Source: a virus (lineage: Duplodnaviria > Heunggongvirae > Uroviricota > Caudoviricetes). Taken from it: a stretch of DNA of 29,513 nucleotides. The notes under the pieces were generated by a model. It saw only the letters and a program-made list of their open reading frames with translations. It did not search any database and was not told the DNA's origin. Below, one piece after another: positions 3 to 28,445 of this stretch (within the stretch, counting starts at the first letter, position 1; every line of letters starts with the position of its first letter). Where the stretch lies: positions 1-29,513 of the IMG/VR virus record IMGVR_UViG_3300042879_005260; one strand, 5' to 3'. A program made the translations under genes and the position numbers.

Positions 3-1571
3 TTAGGTCTTAAAATCCCTGGTAAAAGAAGTTCTATAACTCTTGTTGACTTTTCAGTTACGGTACCGGTATTTGGTGATACTTTTGATATTAGATATGC
101 TCCTATATTAAAATTTGGAACCCAAGTCATTGGTGGTGGTCAAACTTTTGAAACTTTAGATGATATTGATTTTTCATCACCATTTAGTGCAGGCGGAATA
201 CCAAATAGATTAATTTTACCTAATATAAATGCTAACAACCAAATAACAAGTTATACCTTAGTTAAAAGAGAGATAGTTAGTAATGGTGTTACAAAAATAT
301 ATAGAAGGTCTATTGGTACTAATGATGCGGTACCTTTTTTAGAAGTTGTTTTACCAGATACAAATGTGGTTTCAATTGATTCCATAATAATTAAAGACGG
401 TACTACTTTTACTGCAACGCCAACAACATCGGAATTTTTAGATGAAGCAATAAGGTGGTATGAAGTAGATTCCTTAGCGGAAGATAAAATTTTTATTCCA
501 GATACAAATAGAACTACCGATAACAACGGTATTACACCTGGTAAATGGAAATCAGTTACTAGGAAATTTTTAAAAGAATATACCGATACTGGTTTTTGTA
601 AATTAACATTTGGTTCAGGATTTTCTGACACCCAGTATTTAGAAGCCTACACTAAAGACTCTTATGTTTTACAAATCGCTAATTATTTTAACAGCACCGC
701 ATTAGGTGAAATACCAAAACCAAATACTACTATGTTTGTTAGATATCGTATCGGTGGTGGTGCGGGTGCAAATATCGGTTCCAATGTTATAAATGCAGTT
801 GGTTTTGTGGAGATGATTGTTAATGGCCCAAATGCGACTAATAATCAATTTGTTAGGTCGTCACTAAGGGTTAATAACCCAGTACCAGCTTTCGGTGGTT
901 CAGATGATCCAACTTTAGAAGAAATAAGATACATAACAAAATACAACTTCGCATCACAAAACAGGGCGGTAACGATTAAAGATTATATTGCAACAATATT
1001 TAAAATGCCTGGTAAATACGGTGTTCCTTTTAGGATGCAAGTTGCAGAAAATAGAAATAAAATAGAATTTGCAATATTAGGTTTAGATTCAGCTGGTAAG
1101 TTAAACAACTCATCAACCAATACACTAAAAGAAAATATGGCTTCTTGGTTGGCGGAATATCGAATGATAAATGACTACGTTTTAGTTCGAGATGGTAGAA
1201 TCATAAATTTAGCTTTAGATATTGATCTTTACACCGATAAAGCACTAAATCAAGGTGAGATTATAAATAATGTTATCAACACCGTTAAAAATTATTTCTC
1301 AATACAAAAGTGGCAAATGGGTGACAATATTTTTATGGCAAATTTAGTAGAAGATATTAATAATGTTGCCGGCGTTTTAAACGTTATGGATATTAAAGTT
1401 TATAATAAAGTTTCTGGTGTTTATTCCTCGAATGTTACCTCACAAGCCTATATTGATGAAACAACCAGGCAAATTGATTTAACAGCTGATTATGCTTTAT
1501 TTGGTGAGTTTGACACAATGTTTGAAATTAAATTTCCTGAAACTGATATTCGTGTAAGAACTAAATCTTAA
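3..1571 (+). CDS. Baseplate wedge subunit, T4 gp6-like (5'-truncated)
   Basis: The frame is open from position 3 (LGLKIPGKRSS...), so the track start at 366 is internal. YNFASQNRAVTIKDY matches the gp6/baseplate-J 'QNRAVT..DY' motif, and VRYRIGGGAGAN is also typical of this family. Confidence 0.85.
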   Translation, partial: LGLKIPGKRSSITLVDFSVTVPVFGDTFDIRYAPILKFGTQVIGGGQTFETLDDIDFSSPFSAGGIPNRLILPNINANNQITSYTLVKREIVSNGVTKIYRRSIGTNDAVPFLEVVLPDTNVVSIDSIIIKDGTTFTATPTTSEFLDEAIRWYEVDSLAEDKIFIPDTNRTTDNNGITPGKWKSVTRKFLKEYTDTGFCKLTFGSGFSDTQYLEAYTKDSYVLQIANYFNSTALGEIPKPNTTMFVRYRIGGGAGANIGSNVINAVGFVEMIVNGPNATNNQFVRSSLRVNNPVPAFGGSDDPTLEEIRYITKYNFASQNRAVTIKDYIATIFKMPGKYGVPFRMQVAENRNKIEFAILGLDSAGKLNNSSTNTLKENMASWLAEYRMINDYVLVRDGRIINLALDIDLYTDKALNQGEIINNVINTVKNYFSIQKWQMGDNIFMANLVEDINNVAGVLNVMDIKVYNKVSGVYSSNVTSQAYIDETTRQIDLTADYALFGEFDTMFEIKFPETDIRVRTKS

Positions 1572-3343: not shown

Positions 3344-4077
3344 TTAAGTATCAAATACAAAATAGTTTTATTAAAACCACTGGAAATACAATAGTAGTAA
3401 GTGGTGGTACTTTTACTGAGGATTATAAATCAATTGTTATACCTATCGGTATGACTTTTTTACCTGTTGATTATGCTGAGGACGTGAATAAAGTTATAGA
3501 GACTGAAGTTAAAAAAGCTATTAACCCTTATTTTGATGCTGAAACAACAAAATATATATACCCAGATAAAGATTTAACCATTGAGTTTAGATTCTGGGAC
3601 AGTGTTGGGTTTTTTAGTGATTACGTTTCAGCTGGTTTTAATGAAACTGATATTAGAATAAGGAGGAAAGGGTTTAAAAATAGTTTTTTTAGGTTATATT
3701 TTTATGATAGTAATGATACAGAAAATAGCGAATTATTGTTTACCGAAGATTTAGATGTGGGAGAAACTAAAAAACCCAAAATAGATTTTAATGAACTTTA
3801 TTGGTTACGTAATGATGATTTTTTTATAAAAAATAACACAAATAGAACTGTCTATATGGAAGCAAAGTTTTTTAACGCAAAAATAGGCAAGATATTAACT
3901 TTTATAAATTTACCACTACAATATGGGCAAATAGATATTTCAGATTATGTTAACAATTTAAATTGGCGACGAGTACCCATAGTAATCAAAAACCCAAAAT
4001 TAAATACGGGATACTATAATTTCTCACCTAACAACGGCAGTAATAATATACTTTTAACACAATTGGTTATTGATTGA
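3337..4077 (+). CDS. Hypothetical protein, probably structural
   Basis: 246-aa ORF overlapping both neighbours inside the structural operon. Confidence 0.5.
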   Translation: MLIKYQIQNSFIKTTGNTIVVSGGTFTEDYKSIVIPIGMTFLPVDYAEDVNKVIETEVKKAINPYFDAETTKYIYPDKDLTIEFRFWDSVGFFSDYVSAGFNETDIRIRRKGFKNSFFRLYFYDSNDTENSELLFTEDLDVGETKKPKIDFNELYWLRNDDFFIKNNTNRTVYMEAKFFNAKIGKILTFINLPLQYGQIDISDYVNNLNWRRVPIVIKNPKLNTGYYNFSPNNGSNNILLTQLVID

Positions 4078-5663
4078 TGGAAATAATTAAAAAAAAATAT
4101 CGTTACCATAATTTAAGTGCTGAAACATTTAATTTCCCTATTTTTATAACACAAAATTTATTTAATACGGGGATTTATACCGATGTTGCGAATATAAACA
4201 ATGATGTTATTACTGGTTTTACATCTTCTTGGGATTTATCTTATGATGGAAGTTTACAAAAAAACTGTAAAACAACAAATAAATGCCAGGTAACACCAAC
4301 AATAACTAACGTAACAAGTTATAACGGTAACGACGGCAGTATTGTTATAAACGTAACAAATTTAAATACACCAGATTGTCCAGGCCCATTAGAAATAGAA
4401 TGGTTAGGCCCTAATTTTAATAGCACTGGTAGTTATAATATTAATAACCTTTATTCTGGTAATTATACGTTAAAAATAATAGACGCAGATTGTAATAGAA
4501 CTTTTAAAAGTTATTATATACAACAACCACCTGCTTTAGATAGTGATTTATTAGTTGATAACAGCCAAGTTAACGCAACAAACAATATATGTAACGGTTC
4601 TGCAACGGTGACGGTCACTGGTGGTGCACCACCTTATACATATGCTTGGTATTCAGCCGGTACAACAACACCAATAATCAGTACAAACTCTCAAATAACA
4701 AATATTTGTTTGGGTAGTAGTTATTATGTAGTTGTCACTGATTCTGACGGTACGATTGTGACTGAGTTTTTCACCTTGGAATTACCAGAACCTTTATCTG
4801 GCAGAACAATTTCAAAAACAGATATCGACTGCCAAGGTACCCCTGGTGAGATAGAAGTTGAAGGTTTTGGTGGTGTCGTCGGTACAGGATATACCTATCA
4901 ATTGTTGTCTGGTACGCCAGCAGTACCAATAGACCAAAACATTACTGGTATTTTTAATAATATAACACAAATAAACAGTGCATATATTGTTAGAATTATA
5001 GACGCTGTGGGACAGCAATTTGATTTATACGTTTCAATAACACAACCGATACCCGCGATAACAATAACAATTAATAGCACTAGTAATGCCCAAACAGATG
5101 GTTTTGATGGTGACACACCAACAGACCCAGACGGGCAATTTACTTTTAGTGTTATTGGTGGTGGAGGTATAACACAAAATAATTCTGTTGTTTATAATGT
5201 TTCTGCAGACCCGGTTTTTGATACAGGTTGTGGGTATACAATCGAGAATTCCTCTGTCGGTGGCGGTGGGTATGCTTTGGCAAATTCAACCACTTTATAT
5301 GCTTTATCTAGTGGTTGGTATGAAGTTGTTGCGTCAGATTTAGAATGTGAAACCACAATAAAAAATTGCGTAAACCATAGTTATACATCAAGTGTTGGAA
5401 TTACTAGCATAGGTGGAGGTAAATTACGAGCCAGTATATCAAATCCAACTGGATATAATTTTTATTTAATAAAATGGTCAGACGGTCAAAATTATGTTTG
5501 CCCAGGGGTTTTAACTGGTAGCCCTTGCGGAAGTCAAATATTAGATAGTAACCCACACGCCTCTGGAAGTCAAATTGTTTTAGAGGTAATTTGGGTTGAC
5601 TCAGCGGACCCCACCAATGACGCTAAATGGCGTACTTTTAAAAGAATATTTAAAATTCCTTAA
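4077..5663 (+). CDS. SprB-repeat-containing (Ig-like) virion/adhesin protein
   Basis: About four degenerate SprB-like units, e.g. VTSYNGNDGSIVINVT...NLYSGNYTLKIIDADC and CNGSATVTVTGGAPPYTYAW...YYVVVTDSDG. The ATG at 4077 overlaps the upstream TGA; the track start at 4074 is a TTG. Confidence 0.7.
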   Translation: MEIIKKKYRYHNLSAETFNFPIFITQNLFNTGIYTDVANINNDVITGFTSSWDLSYDGSLQKNCKTTNKCQVTPTITNVTSYNGNDGSIVINVTNLNTPDCPGPLEIEWLGPNFNSTGSYNINNLYSGNYTLKIIDADCNRTFKSYYIQQPPALDSDLLVDNSQVNATNNICNGSATVTVTGGAPPYTYAWYSAGTTTPIISTNSQITNICLGSSYYVVVTDSDGTIVTEFFTLELPEPLSGRTISKTDIDCQGTPGEIEVEGFGGVVGTGYTYQLLSGTPAVPIDQNITGIFNNITQINSAYIVRIIDAVGQQFDLYVSITQPIPAITITINSTSNAQTDGFDGDTPTDPDGQFTFSVIGGGGITQNNSVVYNVSADPVFDTGCGYTIENSSVGGGGYALANSTTLYALSSGWYEVVASDLECETTIKNCVNHSYTSSVGITSIGGGKLRASISNPTGYNFYLIKWSDGQNYVCPGVLTGSPCGSQILDSNPHASGSQIVLEVIWVDSADPTNDAKWRTFKRIFKIP

Positions 5664-6109: not shown

Positions 6110-7006
6110 ATGGCTAGTGGAAATTACGGAACAATAAGAGCGGCAACTGTCTCACCAAGCGATATGGAAATATACTATACTTATTCACCATCAAGAGATA
6201 TTGCCCCAACATTACCTTTACAATCATTATCACCATCACAAGTTATATCAAGATTTAATGATCCAAACCCAAATGCGAATGGTGTCGCTTTATTTGATGG
6301 TTTATATAATTTACAATTACCTGTTTCTAATTTTTCAACTAAAGGTATTTACAATATCGTTATAAAACCAAGAGAAATTAAAACAGTAATTACTGCTTGT
6401 GGTGTTTTAGCGGCTTTCCCAGATGTTAGGGGAATAGTTTTAGACGCAACACAATTAGGCGTACAAGATGTTACTTCTTTAATTGGTTATCGTGTTGAAT
6501 ATTATGATACCACAGGAAATAGAATACCTAATTTTTTTAGAATTATAACTTCAGCAAATCGTACTGAAGTGGTAAACGCTAATATTTCTACAACAACACA
6601 AACATCAGTTAGATATCGTTTTAACAACAGTTCTAATTTAGTTTTCTGTACCTTAACACCTAGTTCCGCACCAACAGTGGTGCCTAACCAATTTCCAAAT
6701 ATAGGAACACCGGGTCAGGCAATATCTATCAGTAACACTTTTTTTAACCCAATTTTAATAGAATTAGAAATGGTTGAATACGATACTGAAACATTGGCTT
6801 ATGGTATTTTTGGTAATCAAACAAAATCTATCCAAGACGGTAAGTACACTATTTATGATTTCCAAAATAATATATACAAACAATATAATCTTTATGAAAT
6901 ACAAGATCAATTTACCAATGAACCACTTTATGAAGTTAGAGAAGAAGTTGCTACAATTGATTTTACTAAAGATTTTAATACTATAACAAACTTATCAACA
7001 ACGTAA
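6110..7006 (+). CDS. Putative baseplate structural protein
   Basis: 298-aa ORF with an A-rich leader, coupled by TAATG to the next gene. The sequence is beta-rich and globular-looking. Confidence 0.5.
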   Translation: MASGNYGTIRAATVSPSDMEIYYTYSPSRDIAPTLPLQSLSPSQVISRFNDPNPNANGVALFDGLYNLQLPVSNFSTKGIYNIVIKPREIKTVITACGVLAAFPDVRGIVLDATQLGVQDVTSLIGYRVEYYDTTGNRIPNFFRIITSANRTEVVNANISTTTQTSVRYRFNNSSNLVFCTLTPSSAPTVVPNQFPNIGTPGQAISISNTFFNPILIELEMVEYDTETLAYGIFGNQTKSIQDGKYTIYDFQNNIYKQYNLYEIQDQFTNEPLYEVREEVATIDFTKDFNTITNLSTT

Positions 7007-9963
7007 TGGCAAGAATTAAAGTAGTACCAAGAAGTTTAACAGAAGCCTATAAAAAAAGAGAAGGTGATTTTTCACCAAATCTTGTAGGCTTACAGTTTAC
7101 TGACCCTAATGCTTTTTTTACTTTTGGTAACTTTCAAATTACAACAAACTTAGAAAGTAGATTAGTTAAAGATTTTGTACTAGGTGGTGAATGGTCTAAT
7201 TACTACAATTTAACAAATTTAAATTTAACTGAAGAAGATTCAGAAAATTTTTTGTCAAATGAAATATTTGTTAGATTAAATTTTAACCCAAATAGAATAG
7301 ATAGGTATGTTTATTTTGGTAGTTTTTATGAATATGCAAGGGTTACCGTAGAAAGTATAATTACAAAATGGAAAGGAGGTGTTTATTTAAACCCGACGTT
7401 AAATTCTAATGTACCTTTAAATACAGTTTTAAGTTTTAATTTTAACAGTGGTAACGACACAAGTACTTTTGTTATACCAAAATCAATCGTTAGTAATCCT
7501 TTTCAACTTATTTTAGATGAAGATTTAACACCACCAGGAACTGGTGAAATATATAATTTAAACTATAGTTTTAATAAATACGTAATAAAATCCGATAGTG
7601 GTACATATGATGTTATTGGTTATACTGCTTCAACAACCACAAATCCTTATATACAAGTAACAACAAAAGGAAATCCGTTCCCAAGTTTAACAGCTTCTAC
7701 TTTTGGTGGTTTAAGTTATTTATTAAGACCTAACGATTTAGAAGTTGAATTGTTTTTTAACGAATTAAATGATTTTGAAAGAATACTTTTAAATAGGTTA
7801 ACAACACCAATATACACTTCTACTTTTGATGTTCCTGTAGAATCTGACGGTGTTACTTTTACGTCTACTAAAACATTAACTTGGCCAACTACTGATGGGT
7901 ATAATATTGACATTAATACTCGTGATTATTCTTTATATCTTGAAAATTTACTTGAAATGGCCTCAACTTTTGACGCCAATAAAACTGATTTAGTATCAAG
8001 AAGGTTTGTTTCAGAATCTATACATGAGTTTGATACCAACGGAGGCGGTGACCCAGTTTATGGTATGAAAGTAACTAAATTGTTAAAAATTTATGGTCGT
8101 GAATTTGATGAAGTTAAAAAATATATTGACGGTATTTCTTTTGCAAATGTTGTAACTTACGATAAATTAGACAACACATCCGATGAATTAATTAAAATAT
8201 TGGCAAAAAATTTAGGTTTTGATGTTTTATTAACTGTAACAACTAATGATTTTGACCTTAAACAACAAATTTTAACAACAAACGCAACAAGTTTTAGTGG
8301 TTATTCTAAAAGTTTATCCGCAAAAGAATTAGATGTTGAATTATGGCGACGATTAGTTATAAACGCATGGTGGTTATACAAATCTAAAGGTACAAGAAAG
8401 GTAATTGAATTTTTACTAAACTTATTTAAAATACCAGAGTGTATGGTTTCTCTGGATGAATACGTTTATTTAGCTTCTAACAGGTTAGACACAACTAACG
8501 TATTTGATGAGTTACAAAAAATATATAACGATCCGACATTTTCTTTTTTAGACGTAAACCCTATACCCATGGACGACGTAGGGTTTCCTTTGCCTTTAAC
8601 AGAAACAATTGATAATTATTTTCAAAATGACGGTTATTGGTATAACAATGGTAATGAGAAAACTGAAGGTAACAATCCACATTACGGGCCTTACGATATA
8701 GGAACCAAATATTTAAACCAATTTAAATGTTTCGTACCAAATTTTAATGATTTTATAACTGGTTTAACAACCGTAACCACAATAAAAAATAGTTTTACTG
8801 ATTTTGATAAAGGTAATTTTACCGTTGGAACTTTGCCAACATATCCTAATTACGGTACATTAGTTAGTAATGCCACTATAATCGAAGCGGGCCTTGTTAC
8901 TTATGGTGATGTTGAAGGCCCAAATCTACCTGTATCTTCAGATGATAACGATTCATTAAAAATTAAATTTAAACCAGGTAACGGTTCAGAAAATTGTAAC
9001 CCTTGTACTTATAATTTATCATACAATGAAAATGGTTTTGTTTACATAACAGAAACAAACAAACCTTTAGACGATACTAGGTGTTGCCAACATTATGTAG
9101 ATCCAGATGGTTTATGTTATTGGTGCCCACAAACTGTTACGGAGGTTTGTACGCCACAAGAATACATTGATTTATTTTCGGAAAGTCAAATAGAAGCTTA
9201 TGCAGAAAGTTTAGGATGGGATTTAAATAGTAATAAAGCCGCGGAAGATTTTGTATTAGAAATATTAACACCTTTTTTTACTGAAAATGGTTGTTTAGTG
9301 GTAGATACCACAAATATCGAAAATGTCATAACAATAAGAAATAATCAATGTTGCCAGTCTAAGGGTGGTAACTTAGTTGAATATGAAGGTTCTTACTATT
9401 GCGTTAAGTCCCTTGAAGACCCTTGTAATAATTACGAAGAGGTATCACATGTTTATACTATTGATGGGCAATTAATGTCAGAAACTTGTTGTATTTCTTT
9501 AGGTTTTAACTGGAATGGTAGTCTATTAGAACCTAGTAAAATAAACATATACAATGAAAGTGGGCAAATAGTAGGATCGTTTACCGATAACGTTGCTCAA
9601 CAATATGTAACATCTATAACGAACAGTAAATTTTATTGTTCGGCTTGTCCACAAAACATTAAAGAAAGTGCCGATGGTTTACTTGCTTACAATCCAGAGA
9701 CTGAAACAACAACAGCGTTAAGTCAAACATGTTGTATTGATTTTGGTTTTACATATGATAGTGCTAGTGGTAAATGTTTAAAATGCCCAACACCTTCTTT
9801 ATCACAATCAGGGCCTGTACTTGAGGTTGTGTTCCCACCGAATACTAATGTAGAAGAATGTTGTACATCTCTTGGTTTTTATTATTATGACGCGGAGACA
9901 ACAAACAATGGTAATATACCAATAACAGATCAAACGGCTGAAACGGCCCCAACATCTGGTTAA
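7006..9963 (+). CDS. Baseplate wedge protein (gp7/P2 gpI-like core) with C-terminal Cys-rich repeats
   Basis: LWRRLVINAWWLYKSKGTRKVIEFLLNLF matches the 'KGT..IE.LL' motif of gpI/gp7-like wedge proteins. The C-terminal third carries CC...CxxCP repeats. Confidence 0.6.
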   Translation: MARIKVVPRSLTEAYKKREGDFSPNLVGLQFTDPNAFFTFGNFQITTNLESRLVKDFVLGGEWSNYYNLTNLNLTEEDSENFLSNEIFVRLNFNPNRIDRYVYFGSFYEYARVTVESIITKWKGGVYLNPTLNSNVPLNTVLSFNFNSGNDTSTFVIPKSIVSNPFQLILDEDLTPPGTGEIYNLNYSFNKYVIKSDSGTYDVIGYTASTTTNPYIQVTTKGNPFPSLTASTFGGLSYLLRPNDLEVELFFNELNDFERILLNRLTTPIYTSTFDVPVESDGVTFTSTKTLTWPTTDGYNIDINTRDYSLYLENLLEMASTFDANKTDLVSRRFVSESIHEFDTNGGGDPVYGMKVTKLLKIYGREFDEVKKYIDGISFANVVTYDKLDNTSDELIKILAKNLGFDVLLTVTTNDFDLKQQILTTNATSFSGYSKSLSAKELDVELWRRLVINAWWLYKSKGTRKVIEFLLNLFKIPECMVSLDEYVYLASNRLDTTNVFDELQKIYNDPTFSFLDVNPIPMDDVGFPLPLTETIDNYFQNDGYWYNNGNEKTEGNNPHYGPYDIGTKYLNQFKCFVPNFNDFITGLTTVTTIKNSFTDFDKGNFTVGTLPTYPNYGTLVSNATIIEAGLVTYGDVEGPNLPVSSDDNDSLKIKFKPGNGSENCNPCTYNLSYNENGFVYITETNKPLDDTRCCQHYVDPDGLCYWCPQTVTEVCTPQEYIDLFSESQIEAYAESLGWDLNSNKAAEDFVLEILTPFFTENGCLVVDTTNIENVITIRNNQCCQSKGGNLVEYEGSYYCVKSLEDPCNNYEEVSHVYTIDGQLMSETCCISLGFNWNGSLLEPSKINIYNESGQIVGSFTDNVAQQYVTSITNSKFYCSACPQNIKESADGLLAYNPETETTTALSQTCCIDFGFTYDSASGKCLKCPTPSLSQSGPVLEVVFPPNTNVEECCTSLGFYYYDAETTNNGNIPITDQTAETAPTSG

Positions 9964-12212
9964 TAAAAAAAATAAATGTTTAATGGCAGCTAAATGTTGG
10001 GTATGTCCTAATTTTAATAGTGAAGATTTAATAATTAATAACGGTGTAATTACTTATGCCGGCCAAAACCTTTCACAAACTTGTTGTCAATCCTATGCGG
10101 GGGTAACTAATCAAACAACTACTTACCTGAATGGCATATGTACATTGAGCCAACAATCACAAGAAATAAATTTTGGATCTACAGACGTTATTTATATAAC
10201 TCAGAACGGTGAAATTTATAAACGTAATCTTAGTTCTGTTTTGAATACAACATCAATTGGCGGTAATTATTTTAATTTTATTGGTACTAAAACGTTTTTA
10301 TTTAATTTACCACCACAATTTGCACCTATCTATGACAGTACACTTGGTTGGCGATTTATGTCACTTACATTTAGTAGTAGTAGACTTTATATTTTAAACC
10401 AGTTAGGTACACAATTACTTATTTACAACATAACTTTAAATCCTTTCACCTATTCATTAGTTGGTACAATTAATAAACCAACAAACATTGACAGGTTATA
10501 CGGATTAAGTATTAGCGGTAATGATTTATATTCAGTCGCTATAATTGGTTCAACAAGAAAATTAATAAAACTAAATGGATATCAATCACCTGTTGCAAAC
10601 GGTAATTTAACTTATACCGAAGAATTTTCTCTGGTAAAAGCAACAACAAATACTTTAATTAATTCAAACGAAGAAATACGTTACATATCCATAACAAATA
10701 GTCAACCAAAAAAATTAATAACAATAACAAAATTATCTAATCAATTTTTTATAAATCAATATAATTTTGACAACCAATATATTGATAACGTTAACTATTT
10801 TAACATTGAAAAAGGTGGATTAGAGTTTAGAAAACAATTACTTTTTAACGTTAATATAGATGTTAATAGTATTATAAATAATACAAATATAACTTCTTTA
10901 ATTAACCATAACAGTGGATCACTATATAAAATCACAACCAGTGGTGTAGATTCTGGTTCTTTAGGTTCATATAGTGAAATTTATGAAGTACCGGCCAATA
11001 ATCTAAATGGTTTTATAAACGAAACCAATTCCTATATTATCGGTTCTTCACAATTAACAATAACAAATAAATTTGACGTGGATCCAAACGCTCCATCTTG
11101 TTATATAGACACAAATGGTAATCCGGTTTTAGGGCCACAACCTTGTTAAATCATTTTTAAAAATATAATAACATGCCATTAATAGGAAGTACAAATATAA
11201 TAGGTAGCACAAATATTTCAAAAGACGATAATATTTCTAATTGTTTCTCTAGTGGAGTAGGATTTACTATAACACAAAGCGGTGAAATACTATTTCAAGG
11301 TAAGTCGATAAGAAACGGTAATTGTTGTACTGTTAACAGTTTGTCACAATATACGGGCCCAGGCACTTATACATATATAGATAATAAATGTTATTTAAAC
11401 TACACACCACCAACGCAAACTTGTCCTGGCGGTGGTCAAGTTACTTGTATTGATTCAAACGGATTTAATACTTGGAATAACATTTATACATCTGAATTTG
11501 GCCAAAGTTTATCAGTTACCAACCCAACATTATTTGCTAACTTACAAGATTTAACAAATAATTCAGGATCATTTTCGGTTTATTTTGATACCGGTGGATT
11601 ACTTGATGAAATATGTTGTGCGAGTTTAAACTACACATTTACCAACGGTATATGTCAGTGTGATGTCAGTGTGGTTGATGAACCCAAAAATCCATTTTGT
11701 TTTGGCACTTTAGAAGATTTTGTCGATATCGCGAATGAATCTTTTTTTGTTAATAATTTTATTTTTATTGGGTTATCTATTGGGTTATCTAATACAGATA
11801 GTTTATTTGTAAAAAATAATTTAACGTCGTCAGATCAAAACGATAGAAATACGGCCAGAACTTTATTAAGTAATGCTTTAGCTTCTAACGGTGGCGTTTA
11901 TTTAAATGTTGGTTCTACAACCGGAAATCTAACTAGCCCATCTGAAGCTGAATGTAATAGAATATCAGGTTCTTTTTGGGATGGTACTAACTGTTTATGC
12001 CAACAACCAACTAGCGAACCACCAACTTCAGATGTTTGTAATTTAACTGATGTAAAAATAATAAATGTATATTTAAATAATAATCCAGTACAAATCGTTG
12101 TCCCAAAAGATTATAATACAACAACAAACCCTACATTATTAACGCAAGAATGTTGTTTAAAATTAAAAAATGAAAACAATTTAAATTGGTTTTGGTCACA
12201 AAGTTATTGTTA
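9064..12212 (+). repeat. About ten degenerate Cys-rich protein repeats spread over three genes
   Basis: Units: DTRCC..LCYWCP; NQCC..YYC; SETCC..FYCSACP; SQTCC..GKCLKCP; EECC..|KCWVCP; SQTCC..GIC; GNCC..NKC; EICC..GICQC; EAEC..TNCLC; QECC..SYC. Confidence 0.75.
9983..11149 (+). CDS. Putative tail protein: N-terminal Cys repeat plus probable beta-propeller-like domain
   Basis: Starts MAAKCWVCP...LSQTCC. Repeated short beta-strand blades follow (VIYITQNGEIYKRNL, RLYILNQLGTQLLIYNI, LYGLSISGNDLYSV). Confidence 0.5.
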   Translation: MAAKCWVCPNFNSEDLIINNGVITYAGQNLSQTCCQSYAGVTNQTTTYLNGICTLSQQSQEINFGSTDVIYITQNGEIYKRNLSSVLNTTSIGGNYFNFIGTKTFLFNLPPQFAPIYDSTLGWRFMSLTFSSSRLYILNQLGTQLLIYNITLNPFTYSLVGTINKPTNIDRLYGLSISGNDLYSVAIIGSTRKLIKLNGYQSPVANGNLTYTEEFSLVKATTNTLINSNEEIRYISITNSQPKKLITITKLSNQFFINQYNFDNQYIDNVNYFNIEKGGLEFRKQLLFNVNIDVNSIINNTNITSLINHNSGSLYKITTSGVDSGSLGSYSEIYEVPANNLNGFINETNSYIIGSSQLTITNKFDVDPNAPSCYIDTNGNPVLGPQPC

Positions 12213-12672
12213 CGCAAACGAAACAACCACGAATCAATGTTTACCTACAACTTTTACATTAAACGAAAGTAAAATAGAATTACAACCTTGTGAAAGTGAT
12301 ATTGAACTTTATATGTGGGTTTATGTTAAAACACCAGAAAACGCGGTCTCATTACCTAACACACCAGAATTAGAACCAGATATCATTGTAGATGAAAACA
12401 ACACCGAAAACACGATAACGATACCAGGTGATATTATACCTTTTCCAGACTTTAACAACAATACCACACCTCTCCCCGATTTAGGTACGACAGTGCCAAC
12501 TTTAGCTGGTGATACAAATATAGTACCGATACCGCCACCTAATAGTGGCACATCACCAACAAACCCAACTACTACAATACCATCTGGCACCGATACTTCA
12601 TTACCTGATGGGGCTATTAATGATATTATTTTTGGCCAACAAAAATCACGAACAGGATTATGTCAAATTTAA
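11173..12672 (+). CDS. Putative tail protein with Cys-rich repeats and a Pro/Thr-rich linker
   Basis: Contains four more CC/C...C units (NGNCC, DEICC, EAEC, TQECC) and a P/T/N-rich low-complexity stretch near the C-terminus. Confidence 0.5.
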   Translation: MPLIGSTNIIGSTNISKDDNISNCFSSGVGFTITQSGEILFQGKSIRNGNCCTVNSLSQYTGPGTYTYIDNKCYLNYTPPTQTCPGGGQVTCIDSNGFNTWNNIYTSEFGQSLSVTNPTLFANLQDLTNNSGSFSVYFDTGGLLDEICCASLNYTFTNGICQCDVSVVDEPKNPFCFGTLEDFVDIANESFFVNNFIFIGLSIGLSNTDSLFVKNNLTSSDQNDRNTARTLLSNALASNGGVYLNVGSTTGNLTSPSEAECNRISGSFWDGTNCLCQQPTSEPPTSDVCNLTDVKIINVYLNNNPVQIVVPKDYNTTTNPTLLTQECCLKLKNENNLNWFWSQSYCYANETTTNQCLPTTFTLNESKIELQPCESDIELYMWVYVKTPENAVSLPNTPELEPDIIVDENNTENTITIPGDIIPFPDFNNNTTPLPDLGTTVPTLAGDTNIVPIPPPNSGTSPTNPTTTIPSGTDTSLPDGAINDIIFGQQKSRTGLCQI

Positions 12673-12682
12673 CAATTTTGAA

Positions 12683-12690
12683 TATTTATA
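12683..12690 (+). promoter_or_regulatory. Candidate late-promoter motif TATTTATA
   Basis: Intergenic, 3 nt before the ATG at 12694. The same octamer occurs upstream of the gene at 18889. Confidence 0.35.
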
Positions 12691-12693
12691 AAC

Positions 12694-13866
12694 ATGGCAA
12701 ATGAAATTGGTATAATTAACTGTTATGATAATTTAAATCCGATAACGGCTAGAATAAATTTATCTGAACCTGATTTAAATAGTGTTTTAACACAAGTAAA
12801 CACTTATAATTCAAGTGTTAATAATTTTAACAATTGGATACAATTAAAGGCAACATTACCACCTTCGACTGATACCGTTAATTTTGATATTAACTTACAA
12901 ATAGATACCGGTTTAAATTGTTGTTGTCAATATGAAATCTACGTCGATAAGATATCAATAATATGTAGTGGAAATACAGAATCACCGATTGTTAATGATA
13001 TAAAATGCCCAGGTTATGGAATAACAAAAGTTATTGATAATAAAAAATCTTGGGTTTATAATCCAGGTATTGCGGAAATAGGTATTTCTGAGTACGATAA
13101 CATAGAAAGAGCAGATGGTAGTTTTGGTTTAATAAGTGGTGAAGGTACAATAAATAGAATTTTCGCACCTAGCCCTGACGCTGAAATACCTTGGCGTTAT
13201 ACTAATTATTTTTTACAATCAAGTGTCTACGAAAAACACAGTAATCTAACCTTAAACTCTAAAGAGTTATGGTTGATTTTTAATATGTGTGCTGACTGCC
13301 CAATTAGTGGTACAAGTTTAACTTGTCCAACAGGATATACTTTGTCAGCCAATACCAATTTTTGTTATAGTGGTGTTTCGGTAACCACGGCTACGACCGT
13401 AGTAACAGTTTCTTATTTAAGTCTATTAGAACTTGAAAACTATAAAAAACAGTTTCAAAGTTTTTGGACGCCATTTTTGGAACAATTTATACCAGCAACA
13501 ACTATATGGGTTGCGGGTGAAAGATGGTGTAACGACCCTTGTACCGTTATTGATACTTGTGCTTTTGATTTAACTGAAAGTGAACTATCTTTTGTAACAA
13601 TTCAAGAAACAACAAACACTTCAAATAACACAAACATAGTTACAAGTTACGCGAGTCCAGAAGTGTTTTCGTCAACAGCAACGTCAGCACCTTCTGGTGG
13701 TTATAGTGGACAATTACCTACTAATTCTAACGCCAATACTATAACAATTTTAGATTTAGGTAATACAAGTTCCACACCAAATACCGTGACTGAAGAAGAT
13801 TCTAATATTGACATGTTGTCATATCAGAGTAGATTTACAACACCTAACACTATAACACAATTTTAA
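12694..13866 (+). CDS. Putative baseplate/tail protein (possible C-terminal part of the wedge protein)
   Basis: 390-aa ORF containing FQSFWTPFLEQFIPATTIWVAGE, which resembles the 'L....PA' C-terminal motif of gpI/gp7-like wedge proteins. Confidence 0.45.
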   Translation: MANEIGIINCYDNLNPITARINLSEPDLNSVLTQVNTYNSSVNNFNNWIQLKATLPPSTDTVNFDINLQIDTGLNCCCQYEIYVDKISIICSGNTESPIVNDIKCPGYGITKVIDNKKSWVYNPGIAEIGISEYDNIERADGSFGLISGEGTINRIFAPSPDAEIPWRYTNYFLQSSVYEKHSNLTLNSKELWLIFNMCADCPISGTSLTCPTGYTLSANTNFCYSGVSVTTATTVVTVSYLSLLELENYKKQFQSFWTPFLEQFIPATTIWVAGERWCNDPCTVIDTCAFDLTESELSFVTIQETTNTSNNTNIVTSYASPEVFSSTATSAPSGGYSGQLPTNSNANTITILDLGNTSSTPNTVTEEDSNIDMLSYQSRFTTPNTITQF

Positions 13867-26327: not shown

Positions 26328-26636
26328 ATGCAACAATTAAACGAAACAACTTACGACGAAATGATTAACGAGAATAAATTAACTGTGGTTAAATTCTTTG
26401 GAGTCTGGTGCGGTCCCTGCAAGGTACTTGCTCCGGCATTAGAAAGTATTGTTGGTAACTATCCAGATGTTAATTTTGGTGAAGTAGATATCGACCAAAA
26501 CATCTCACTAGCTCAAAAAGAAGGTATTCGTGGTGTACCTGCTGTTATCTTTTATAAAAATGGAAATGTTTTAGATAGATTATCTGGTTTACAACCTTTA
26601 CTAAATTATGTTAATAAAATAGAATCTTTGAAATAA
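26328..26636 (+). CDS. trxA: Thioredoxin
   Basis: 102 aa with VKFFGVWCGPCK active site and GIRGVPAVIFYKNG. Confidence 0.93.
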   Translation: MQQLNETTYDEMINENKLTVVKFFGVWCGPCKVLAPALESIVGNYPDVNFGEVDIDQNISLAQKEGIRGVPAVIFYKNGNVLDRLSGLQPLLNYVNKIESLK

Positions 26637-27284: not shown

Positions 27285-28445
27285 ATGGCCGACAAGAAAA
27301 GTGTTGTTTTTGAAACAAAATTAACCCCAGAAGAAACTTTGGAGATAACAAATAGATTAATGGGTTTTTATGATAATCTAGATACTATTCAAGATTATTT
27401 TTTGGCAAGAAAAAAAGAAAAGGTTGAAAATATTGACCATGAAAAATATGCAGATATGATGTTTAGTGATTTTAACATGGAACCAAAAGATATGCAATTT
27501 TCAATCGAAGTTATCGATGGTAAATTGTTTAATCCGGCAGTTCAAATTATAACCTCACTACCGCTAGAATCTCAGATTGGGCGTCAAGTCACTTTGGGTG
27601 TTAGAGAAACAAACACTAACAAATGGATTGGTTTTATTAGATTAGCTTCACCAGTTTTATCCATTAAACCTAGAAATGACCTTTTTGAAGGTATGAAAGT
27701 AACGGCAAATGAAGTTAATAAGTTTATGATTAACGGTGCGATTATCGTACCAGCACAACCTTTTGGGTATAACTATCTTGGTGGTAAACTTTTAAGTTTA
27801 ATTTGTTGTTCTCATGAAATTAGGGAATTATTGAAGGAAAAGTATGGTGACAAAATTGATACCGTTTTTATGGAAACAACATCACTTTATGGTGATATCA
27901 AAGGTATGAGCCAATATGATGGTTTAAAACCTTTTATAAAGTACGGTAGTATGACTGAATCCGATATTTTTCTATTCCCAGGTGATGAGGTATATGATAG
28001 TATTAGATCTTTTATGCGTCAACATTATGGAAATCCTGAATGGGGTGGTTCAATTGTTGACCCAGGTCCATCGGGCCCAAAGATGAGAGAATTTAATAAA
28101 ATACTTTCAATTTTAAAAAACCATTTAAAAGTACAAAATCCTTTAAAGTTTAAAGAGTTTTCAGACTTTACCCAAAGTCATATGAAAGCGAAAACCAAAA
28201 AAAGATATTATTATTGTACTTATGGTTATGAGAATGTCTTTCAATATATCGCAAGTAACGGTGAAATTGAGTTGGTTAAAAAAGATAATTATGATAGATA
28301 TTATTTAACCAATTTGATTGAGTGGTGGAAAAATAAAGCACAAAATAGATTTCAAAAACTAAAAGATGAGTCGAAAAATAGAACTGAACTTGAAATTTAT
28401 ACACCTGAAACTATTGAAGGTGGTAAAATTGATATGATAAGATAA
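27285..28445 (+). CDS. DUF4338 / DruA-like protein (GNAT/Mom-like fold inferred)
   Basis: Motifs WIGFIRLASP, VPAQPFGYNYLGGKLLSLICCSHE and ETTSLYG...SQYDGLKPF, recognised from phage DUF4338 homologs. Confidence 0.7.
   Translation: MADKKSVVFETKLTPEETLEITNRLMGFYDNLDTIQDYFLARKKEKVENIDHEKYADMMFSDFNMEPKDMQFSIEVIDGKLFNPAVQIITSLPLESQIGRQVTLGVRETNTNKWIGFIRLASPVLSIKPRNDLFEGMKVTANEVNKFMINGAIIVPAQPFGYNYLGGKLLSLICCSHEIRELLKEKYGDKIDTVFMETTSLYGDIKGMSQYDGLKPFIKYGSMTESDIFLFPGDEVYDSIRSFMRQHYGNPEWGGSIVDPGPSGPKMREFNKILSILKNHLKVQNPLKFKEFSDFTQSHMKAKTKKRYYYCTYGYENVFQYIASNGEIELVKKDNYDRYYLTNLIEWWKNKAQNRFQKLKDESKNRTELEIYTPETIEGGKIDMIR

Follow-up and report, generated by a model that had tools for sequence, protein, structure and literature searches.

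Two adjacent genes of a tailed phage (Caudoviricetes) that belongs to a group of large uncultured phages, here called A and B, were found as a single gene in several relatives, and comparison of the homologs identifies their separation as a real, derived gene fission that falls inside a four-cysteine module. The DNA analyzed, hereafter the window, comprises 29,513 nt (positions 1 to 29,513 of the IMG/VR record IMGVR_UViG_3300042879_005260). The initial annotation, made from the window alone, had already proposed that one ancestral protein was split, and the fused homologs, the tree, and the phase of the modules all agree with it. We give a probability of about 0.65 to the whole explanation that we prefer, namely, a single fission followed by separate translation, re-docking of the two products, and probably a disulfide between them.

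The layout of the junction is the one first described: gene A ends in PTSG and a TAA (9961 to 9963), a second TAA follows directly (9964 to 9966), and after the A-rich spacer gene B starts at an ATG (9983) in the +1 frame relative to A, its protein beginning with MAAKCWVCP. The intact repeat before the cut was also recovered, with its CC at residues 909 and 910 of A and CLKC at 924 to 927, and the last CC of A lies at residues 952 and 953 (nt 9859 to 9864). The N-terminal body of A is conserved (residues ca. 1 to 660) and contains a KSKGTR motif. In B, residues ca. 60 to 388 make up a beta-rich domain that evolves rapidly, looks like a propeller on visual inspection, and is confined to the split clade and its fused sisters. 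The source genome is a contig of 122.6 kb with A-rich leaders before its genes, and a Shine-Dalgarno motif was found before none of its 155 genes, B included, so that the leader of B is ordinary for this genome. No promoter or terminator above chance was detected at the junction. The coordinates are collected in Table 1.

Table 1. Positions in the window of the genes and modules around the junction between A and B
Feature	Position	Strand	Description
Baseplate wedge subunit, upstream	3..1571	+	83% identical to the L073 protein matching phrog_219
Gene A	7006..9963	+	985 aa; N-terminal body, four whole 4-Cys modules, first three quarters of module 5
Module 4, intact	9646..9777	+	C881..C909 C910..C924
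Module 5, chain-A part	9784..9888	+	C1 (C927), helix with C952-C953, first hairpin strand GFYYY
New C-terminal tail of A	9889..9960	+	8 residues DA.TTNNG, then 16 residues to PTSG
Stop TAA and A-rich leader	9961..9982	+	spacer of 19 nt (9964-9982)
Gene B	9983..11149	+	388 aa
B N-terminus MAAKCWVCP	9983..10009	+	second hairpin strand, module 5 C4 (C5, nt 9995-97), module 6 C1 (C8)
Module 6, whole, chain B	10004..10141	+	C8..C34 C35..C53
Genes C (11173-12672) and D (12694-13866)	11173..13866	+	one ORF in many relatives

Three Logan contigs (L078 to L080) reproduce the junction without any difference across 450 nt; their runs possibly come from the same sample as the window. A JGI contig (L082) matches it fully across 230 nt, and another JGI assembly (L070) carries it with four SNPs in 450 nt. 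Besides, two diverged phages (one represented by L001, L071, and L072 and the other by L069), with A proteins 71 to 72% identical to that of the window, are cut in the same loop of module 5, and in both of them B begins with MAEKCWVCP. Around the cut, the spacers measure 7 and 12 nt versus 19 in the window, the tails of A after the YYY strand 22 and 14 aa versus 24, and the frame offset from A to B is +1 and 0 versus +1; A ends in TLN or GRT, with a single stop each. Common to all the split phages are the cut loop, the motif YYYDA.TTNNG before it, and MA(A/E)KCWVCP after it. Within the tail of A, the eight residues DA.TTNNG are kept in the split clade and those that follow diverge freely. What is conserved, as judged from these alignments, is the loop holding the cut and not the exact letters of the break. 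The proposal that the break lay exactly between SG and KC did not hold, given that fused relatives never carry SG before KC in that repeat (the preceding residues are TSS, GLN, EVS, LVN, or TQE). Similarly, the double stop plus leader had been taken as unlike a single-base assembly error; the junction is indeed no artifact, but the double stop is lineage specific and carries no weight. The double stop, like the SG that precedes it, is a coincidence peculiar to the window lineage. An 8-nt direct repeat around the new ATG (9973 to 9980 and 9991 to 9998) was rejected as a duplication scar, being absent in L001 and L069.

In six relatives (P0003 to P0007 and P0029; loci L002, L004, and L073), A and B make up a single ORF of 1,346 to 1,397 aa that holds both parts collinear and without loss. 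Its A part is 49 to 68% identical to A of the window (62 to 68% in the fused sisters). Thus, alignment to homologs returned the region as one ORF in relatives, and the KCxxCP motif, which the initial annotation had allowed might never be fused to an upstream CC half, is fused to it there. In trees constructed from the N-terminal 670 residues of A, with the repeats excluded, the three split rows formed one clade (100/100) nested among the fused ones. The latter grouped together in none of 200 bootstrap trees, and the AU test was against forcing them to do so (P = 0.0375). An intact module 5 was seen in more than 50 relatives of greater distance, and in the three split lineages both pieces are full ORFs with synonymous changes and conserved residues. 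One fission event is the simplest reading of the split clade.

The position of A in the genome, downstream of gp25-like and wedge-subunit genes, is that of a baseplate operon (in L073, the phrog_219 wedge subunit comes after the gp25 gene), and from this gene order we infer that A and B are virion parts belonging to the baseplate. A KGT motif in the helical region of A aligns with that of P2 gpI, a match that is not significant (probability of 0.6%, E value of 0.1), and for the model of the N-terminal part (pLDDT of 69.6) the sole resemblance was to beta-barrels in general (Z of 5.6 or less). Neither A nor B had sequence matches in PHROGs, Pfam, PDB sequences, or cultured phages, and literature searches turned up neither this protein family nor its fission. 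The same operon encodes an Ig-like repeat protein (4074 to 5663) with Hoc-like PHROG matches and weak SprB matches in relatives. Near this Cys-rich structural operon, the window contains a thioredoxin (26328 to 26636; PF00085, E value of 1.8e-23), which might conceivably take part in handling virion disulfides, and a glutaredoxin-sized ORF is located at position 45455 of the genome. The window also encodes a DruA (Druantia) family protein (27285 to 28445; PF14236, E value of 1.2e-13).

We favor a module that runs from a first cysteine (C1) through an adjacent pair (CC) to a closing one (C4), with the cut inside it, in an insertion-tolerant hairpin loop. Natural variants favor this phasing over a CxxC plus CC unit. 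Arrays that end early retain a CC and one further Cys (P0018, P0037, P0039, P0064, and P0071), tandem-duplicated units copy CP..CC..C, and the final lone C4 of the array is kept in 60 of 61 sequences. Modules 2 and 3 are joined by Cx7C, and in P0038 a Gly/Thr-rich linker of 42 residues separates C4 from the next C1, a connection that is CxxC elsewhere. In the AlphaFold2 model of this region in a fused sister (pLDDT of 88.5), each module shows strands, a CC-bearing helix, and two closing strands, which in module 5 correspond to a helix at 74 to 80 and strands at 84 to 87 (YYY) and 93 to 96 (KCW), with the cut between the two strands. Structural alignments of the array model gave 57 to 98 and 100 to 149 as units. 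The distance from CC to C4 in module 5 ranges from 11 to 30 residues among fused relatives, from which it follows that the loop already tolerated insertions. The array had no match in PDB, BFVD, Pfam, or PHROGs; Foldseek searches of its fold against PDB and BFVD returned nothing significant (E values above 0.2), and the best values obtained elsewhere (VIA-align Z of 3.5 and atlas TM of 0.41, to unnamed phage proteins) are not proof of a new fold.

Among the split lineages, the A half of module 5 has 64% identity, versus 66% for the intact module 4, and eight of the first nine residues of B are identical, with three synonymous codon changes, although the comparison is small (three diverged split lineages, 9 and 22 residues). 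The codon of C5 in B varies synonymously (TGT/TGC), about 36% of the identical codons in A differ synonymously between the split lineages, and the tail of A beyond TTNNG has turned over. Co-folding of A (residues 881 to 985) with B (2 to 58) scored 0.34 (the best of three controls, 0.02). Of 80 solved complexes, 58 reached that mark, as did 2 of 110 mismatches, but only 7 of the 80 did so with 0.60 or under, as did both mismatches. At least 80% of the contacts were shared among the runs, and the partner pLDDT was at least 73. However, halves of split genes tend to pass, and the alignments included fused relatives cut at the loop, for which reasons co-folding adds little. Taken as indirect evidence, the conservation of the halves, along with the weak co-folding signal, makes it plausible that module 5 is rebuilt between chains, and we consider that A and B quite likely re-associate in this manner.

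Alternatively, module 5 could be a tolerated ruin, with B held by other baseplate contacts or set free, and its halves could persist through packing against their own neighbors or owing to the short time since the split. Clean fissions recur across the operon (see below), so chain continuity is often dispensable, and B diverges faster than A (49% versus 80%), as a ruin would allow. Nevertheless, the four Cys and both strands have been kept despite the synonymous turnover of codons and the replacement of the tail, and a Cys left without a partner at residue 5 would readily be lost, which makes this scenario unlikely in either form.

Improbable too, in our view, is a different delimitation of the unit, as a metal site formed by CxxC and the following CC, in which the cut would fall between modules and leave both chains self-contained, with no inter-chain rebuilding needed. 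Under this delimitation A would end with a full set (C924, C927, C952, and C953) and B would begin with another (C5, C8, C34, and C35). CxxC does start the array in nearly all relatives, and phage proteins fold in a reducing cytoplasm. However, its spacing varies among relatives (2, 7 between modules 2 and 3, or 42 residues in P0038), which disfavors a metal knuckle, and the fixed spacing that a CxxC zinc knuckle would combine with a second Cys pair was not found among them. Moreover, where an array is truncated, and in the last module too, a single conserved Cys comes last, after the CC; the model sets the YYY and KCW strands side by side, as in the last module, and the units returned by the structural alignments are also at odds with a metal site. 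As for the chemistry of the C1..CC..C4 module that we favor, adjacent Cys on a helix point different ways, which is easier to reconcile with two separate disulfides than with a single metal ion; we put a disulfide rather than a metal at roughly even odds.

Frameshifting, read-through, or ribosome bypass might still yield a fused product, but we consider this very improbable. The B frame is open back to 9926 in the window and the spacer contains an A-run, but this run comes after the stops, and in L001 the B frame is closed five codons upstream. Offsets and spacers change across the three lineages (+1, +1, and 0; 19, 7, and 12 nt), take-off and landing codons have no match, ATG GC is kept three codons before C5, and RNA structure at the junction was not beyond that of shuffles (z of −0.99, 0.54, and 0.34) nor conserved. 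Of the signs of programmed recoding (frameshift, read-through, or a bypass of the T4 gene 60 type), neither a conserved offset nor slippery or matched codons nor a stimulatory structure was found. That the loop is also broken in the two diverged phages, but with spacers of different length and, in one case, in another frame, excludes conserved recoding as well as assembly error; an assembly or sequencing artifact has next to no chance of being the explanation, with the same junction in five other assemblies and a homologous one in the diverged phages, where A is 71 to 72% identical. A split intein or mobile-element split was rejected, as the spacer has only 7 to 19 nt, the tails 14 to 24 aa, and B starts directly in host sequence.

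Other genes, and other modules of A, are cut in this operon. In an independent clade (P0042, P0045, and P0047; 100/99), A ends just after C1 and a strand of module 3, and the next gene starts a few residues before the CC of this module (L087:10484-10497 and L088:10526-10531). On sequence grounds, this is an independent clean fission inside a module, between C1 and CC, at a different turn. A stops within module 1 in P0035, where a 444-aa gene follows after 3 nt, and likewise in P0044; in L007 the cut lies before module 1. C575 of A is conserved in 109 of 114 relatives, and C664 is an extra first Cys of the array; the two may pair, and the L007 cut falls between their positions with Cys kept on both chains. 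C and D form a single ORF in L005, L006, L008, and L014 to L017 and are separate in the window, L073, and L004. The D leader carries a TATTTATA motif that is present before 26 of 155 ORFs and missing from the leader of B. The D homolog is itself split in other loci (L007:14473-14500, L010:16386-16413, L087:13595-13616, and L088:13515-13542), always at one point, just after a Cys-containing segment and with a ATATTTAT leader. In the distant L050 and L068, the motifs of A and D appear in one ORF (2,523 and 2,314 aa). Judging from these loci, the operon is a fission hot spot, which makes the cut between A and B less singular and the module more interesting.

The peptide YTKSLYE followed by a stop ends pieces of varied length in distant relatives (L007:11395, L023:12418, L026:12510 and 12845, L034:12656, and L053:12014; P0044, P0083, P0091, and P0092); it is absent from the genome of the window. 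It is written with different synonymous codons, indicating that it is kept at the protein level, and it might serve split pieces as a docking tag at the C terminus.

The ancestral gene would have encoded a baseplate-region protein made of a conserved body, six four-Cys modules, and a terminal beta-rich domain. In module 5, the variable hairpin loop would have gained a stop and a start once, in the common ancestor of the small split clade. This cut would have moved the C4 strand to the N terminus of B, and A and B would share a transcript but be translated as separate chains. As the virion assembles, the first strand of B (KCWV) would dock on the remaining helix and strand of A, restoring the hairpin. 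C5 of B would then pair with one Cys of the CC of A, probably as a disulfide in the oxidized particle, and thereby tether the terminal domain of B to A. A four-residue strand is a small interface, and B may be held mostly through other contacts in the baseplate. More tentatively, C1-CC-C4 might be an undescribed disulfide split clasp, cuttable at two turns and with halves that re-lock covalently, which would enable the repeated splits of this family.

A comparable case is NrdA of Aeromonas phage Aeh1, an enzyme broken into nrdA-a and nrdA-b by a mobile endonuclease gene, whose pieces are made separately, gain new essential tails, and reassemble (PMC3045599). In both cases a phage gene is broken inside a functional unit, with reassembly demonstrated in Aeh1 and proposed for A and B. 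In contrast, A and B would form a structural protein, with a spacer of 7 to 19 nt and no mobile element, most of the new tail of A is unconserved, and the link between them would be a donated Cys-bearing strand. In Agrobacterium phage Milano, Cys-rich baseplate and receptor-binding proteins are joined by intra- and inter-chain disulfides (PMC10811340), a precedent for inter-chain bonds in a baseplate such as the one only proposed for A and B; unlike here, the bonds join distinct proteins and not halves of one module, and no sequence or fold link of A or B to Milano was found. Baseplate wedge proteins of the P2 gpI and T4 gp7 type resemble A in its place after gp25-like and wedge-subunit genes, and the nonsignificant KGT alignment is with P2 gpI, but A is far larger and bears the Cys-module array.

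In this family, a viral structural protein has been cut within one of its folded modules, cleanly and with a resolved polarity, and a module of the same type was cut independently a second time. This shows how the limits between chains can shift in phage baseplates while every part is retained. Should a disulfide lock the two halves together, the module, of 45 residues, would amount to a small, naturally occurring split-domain connector.
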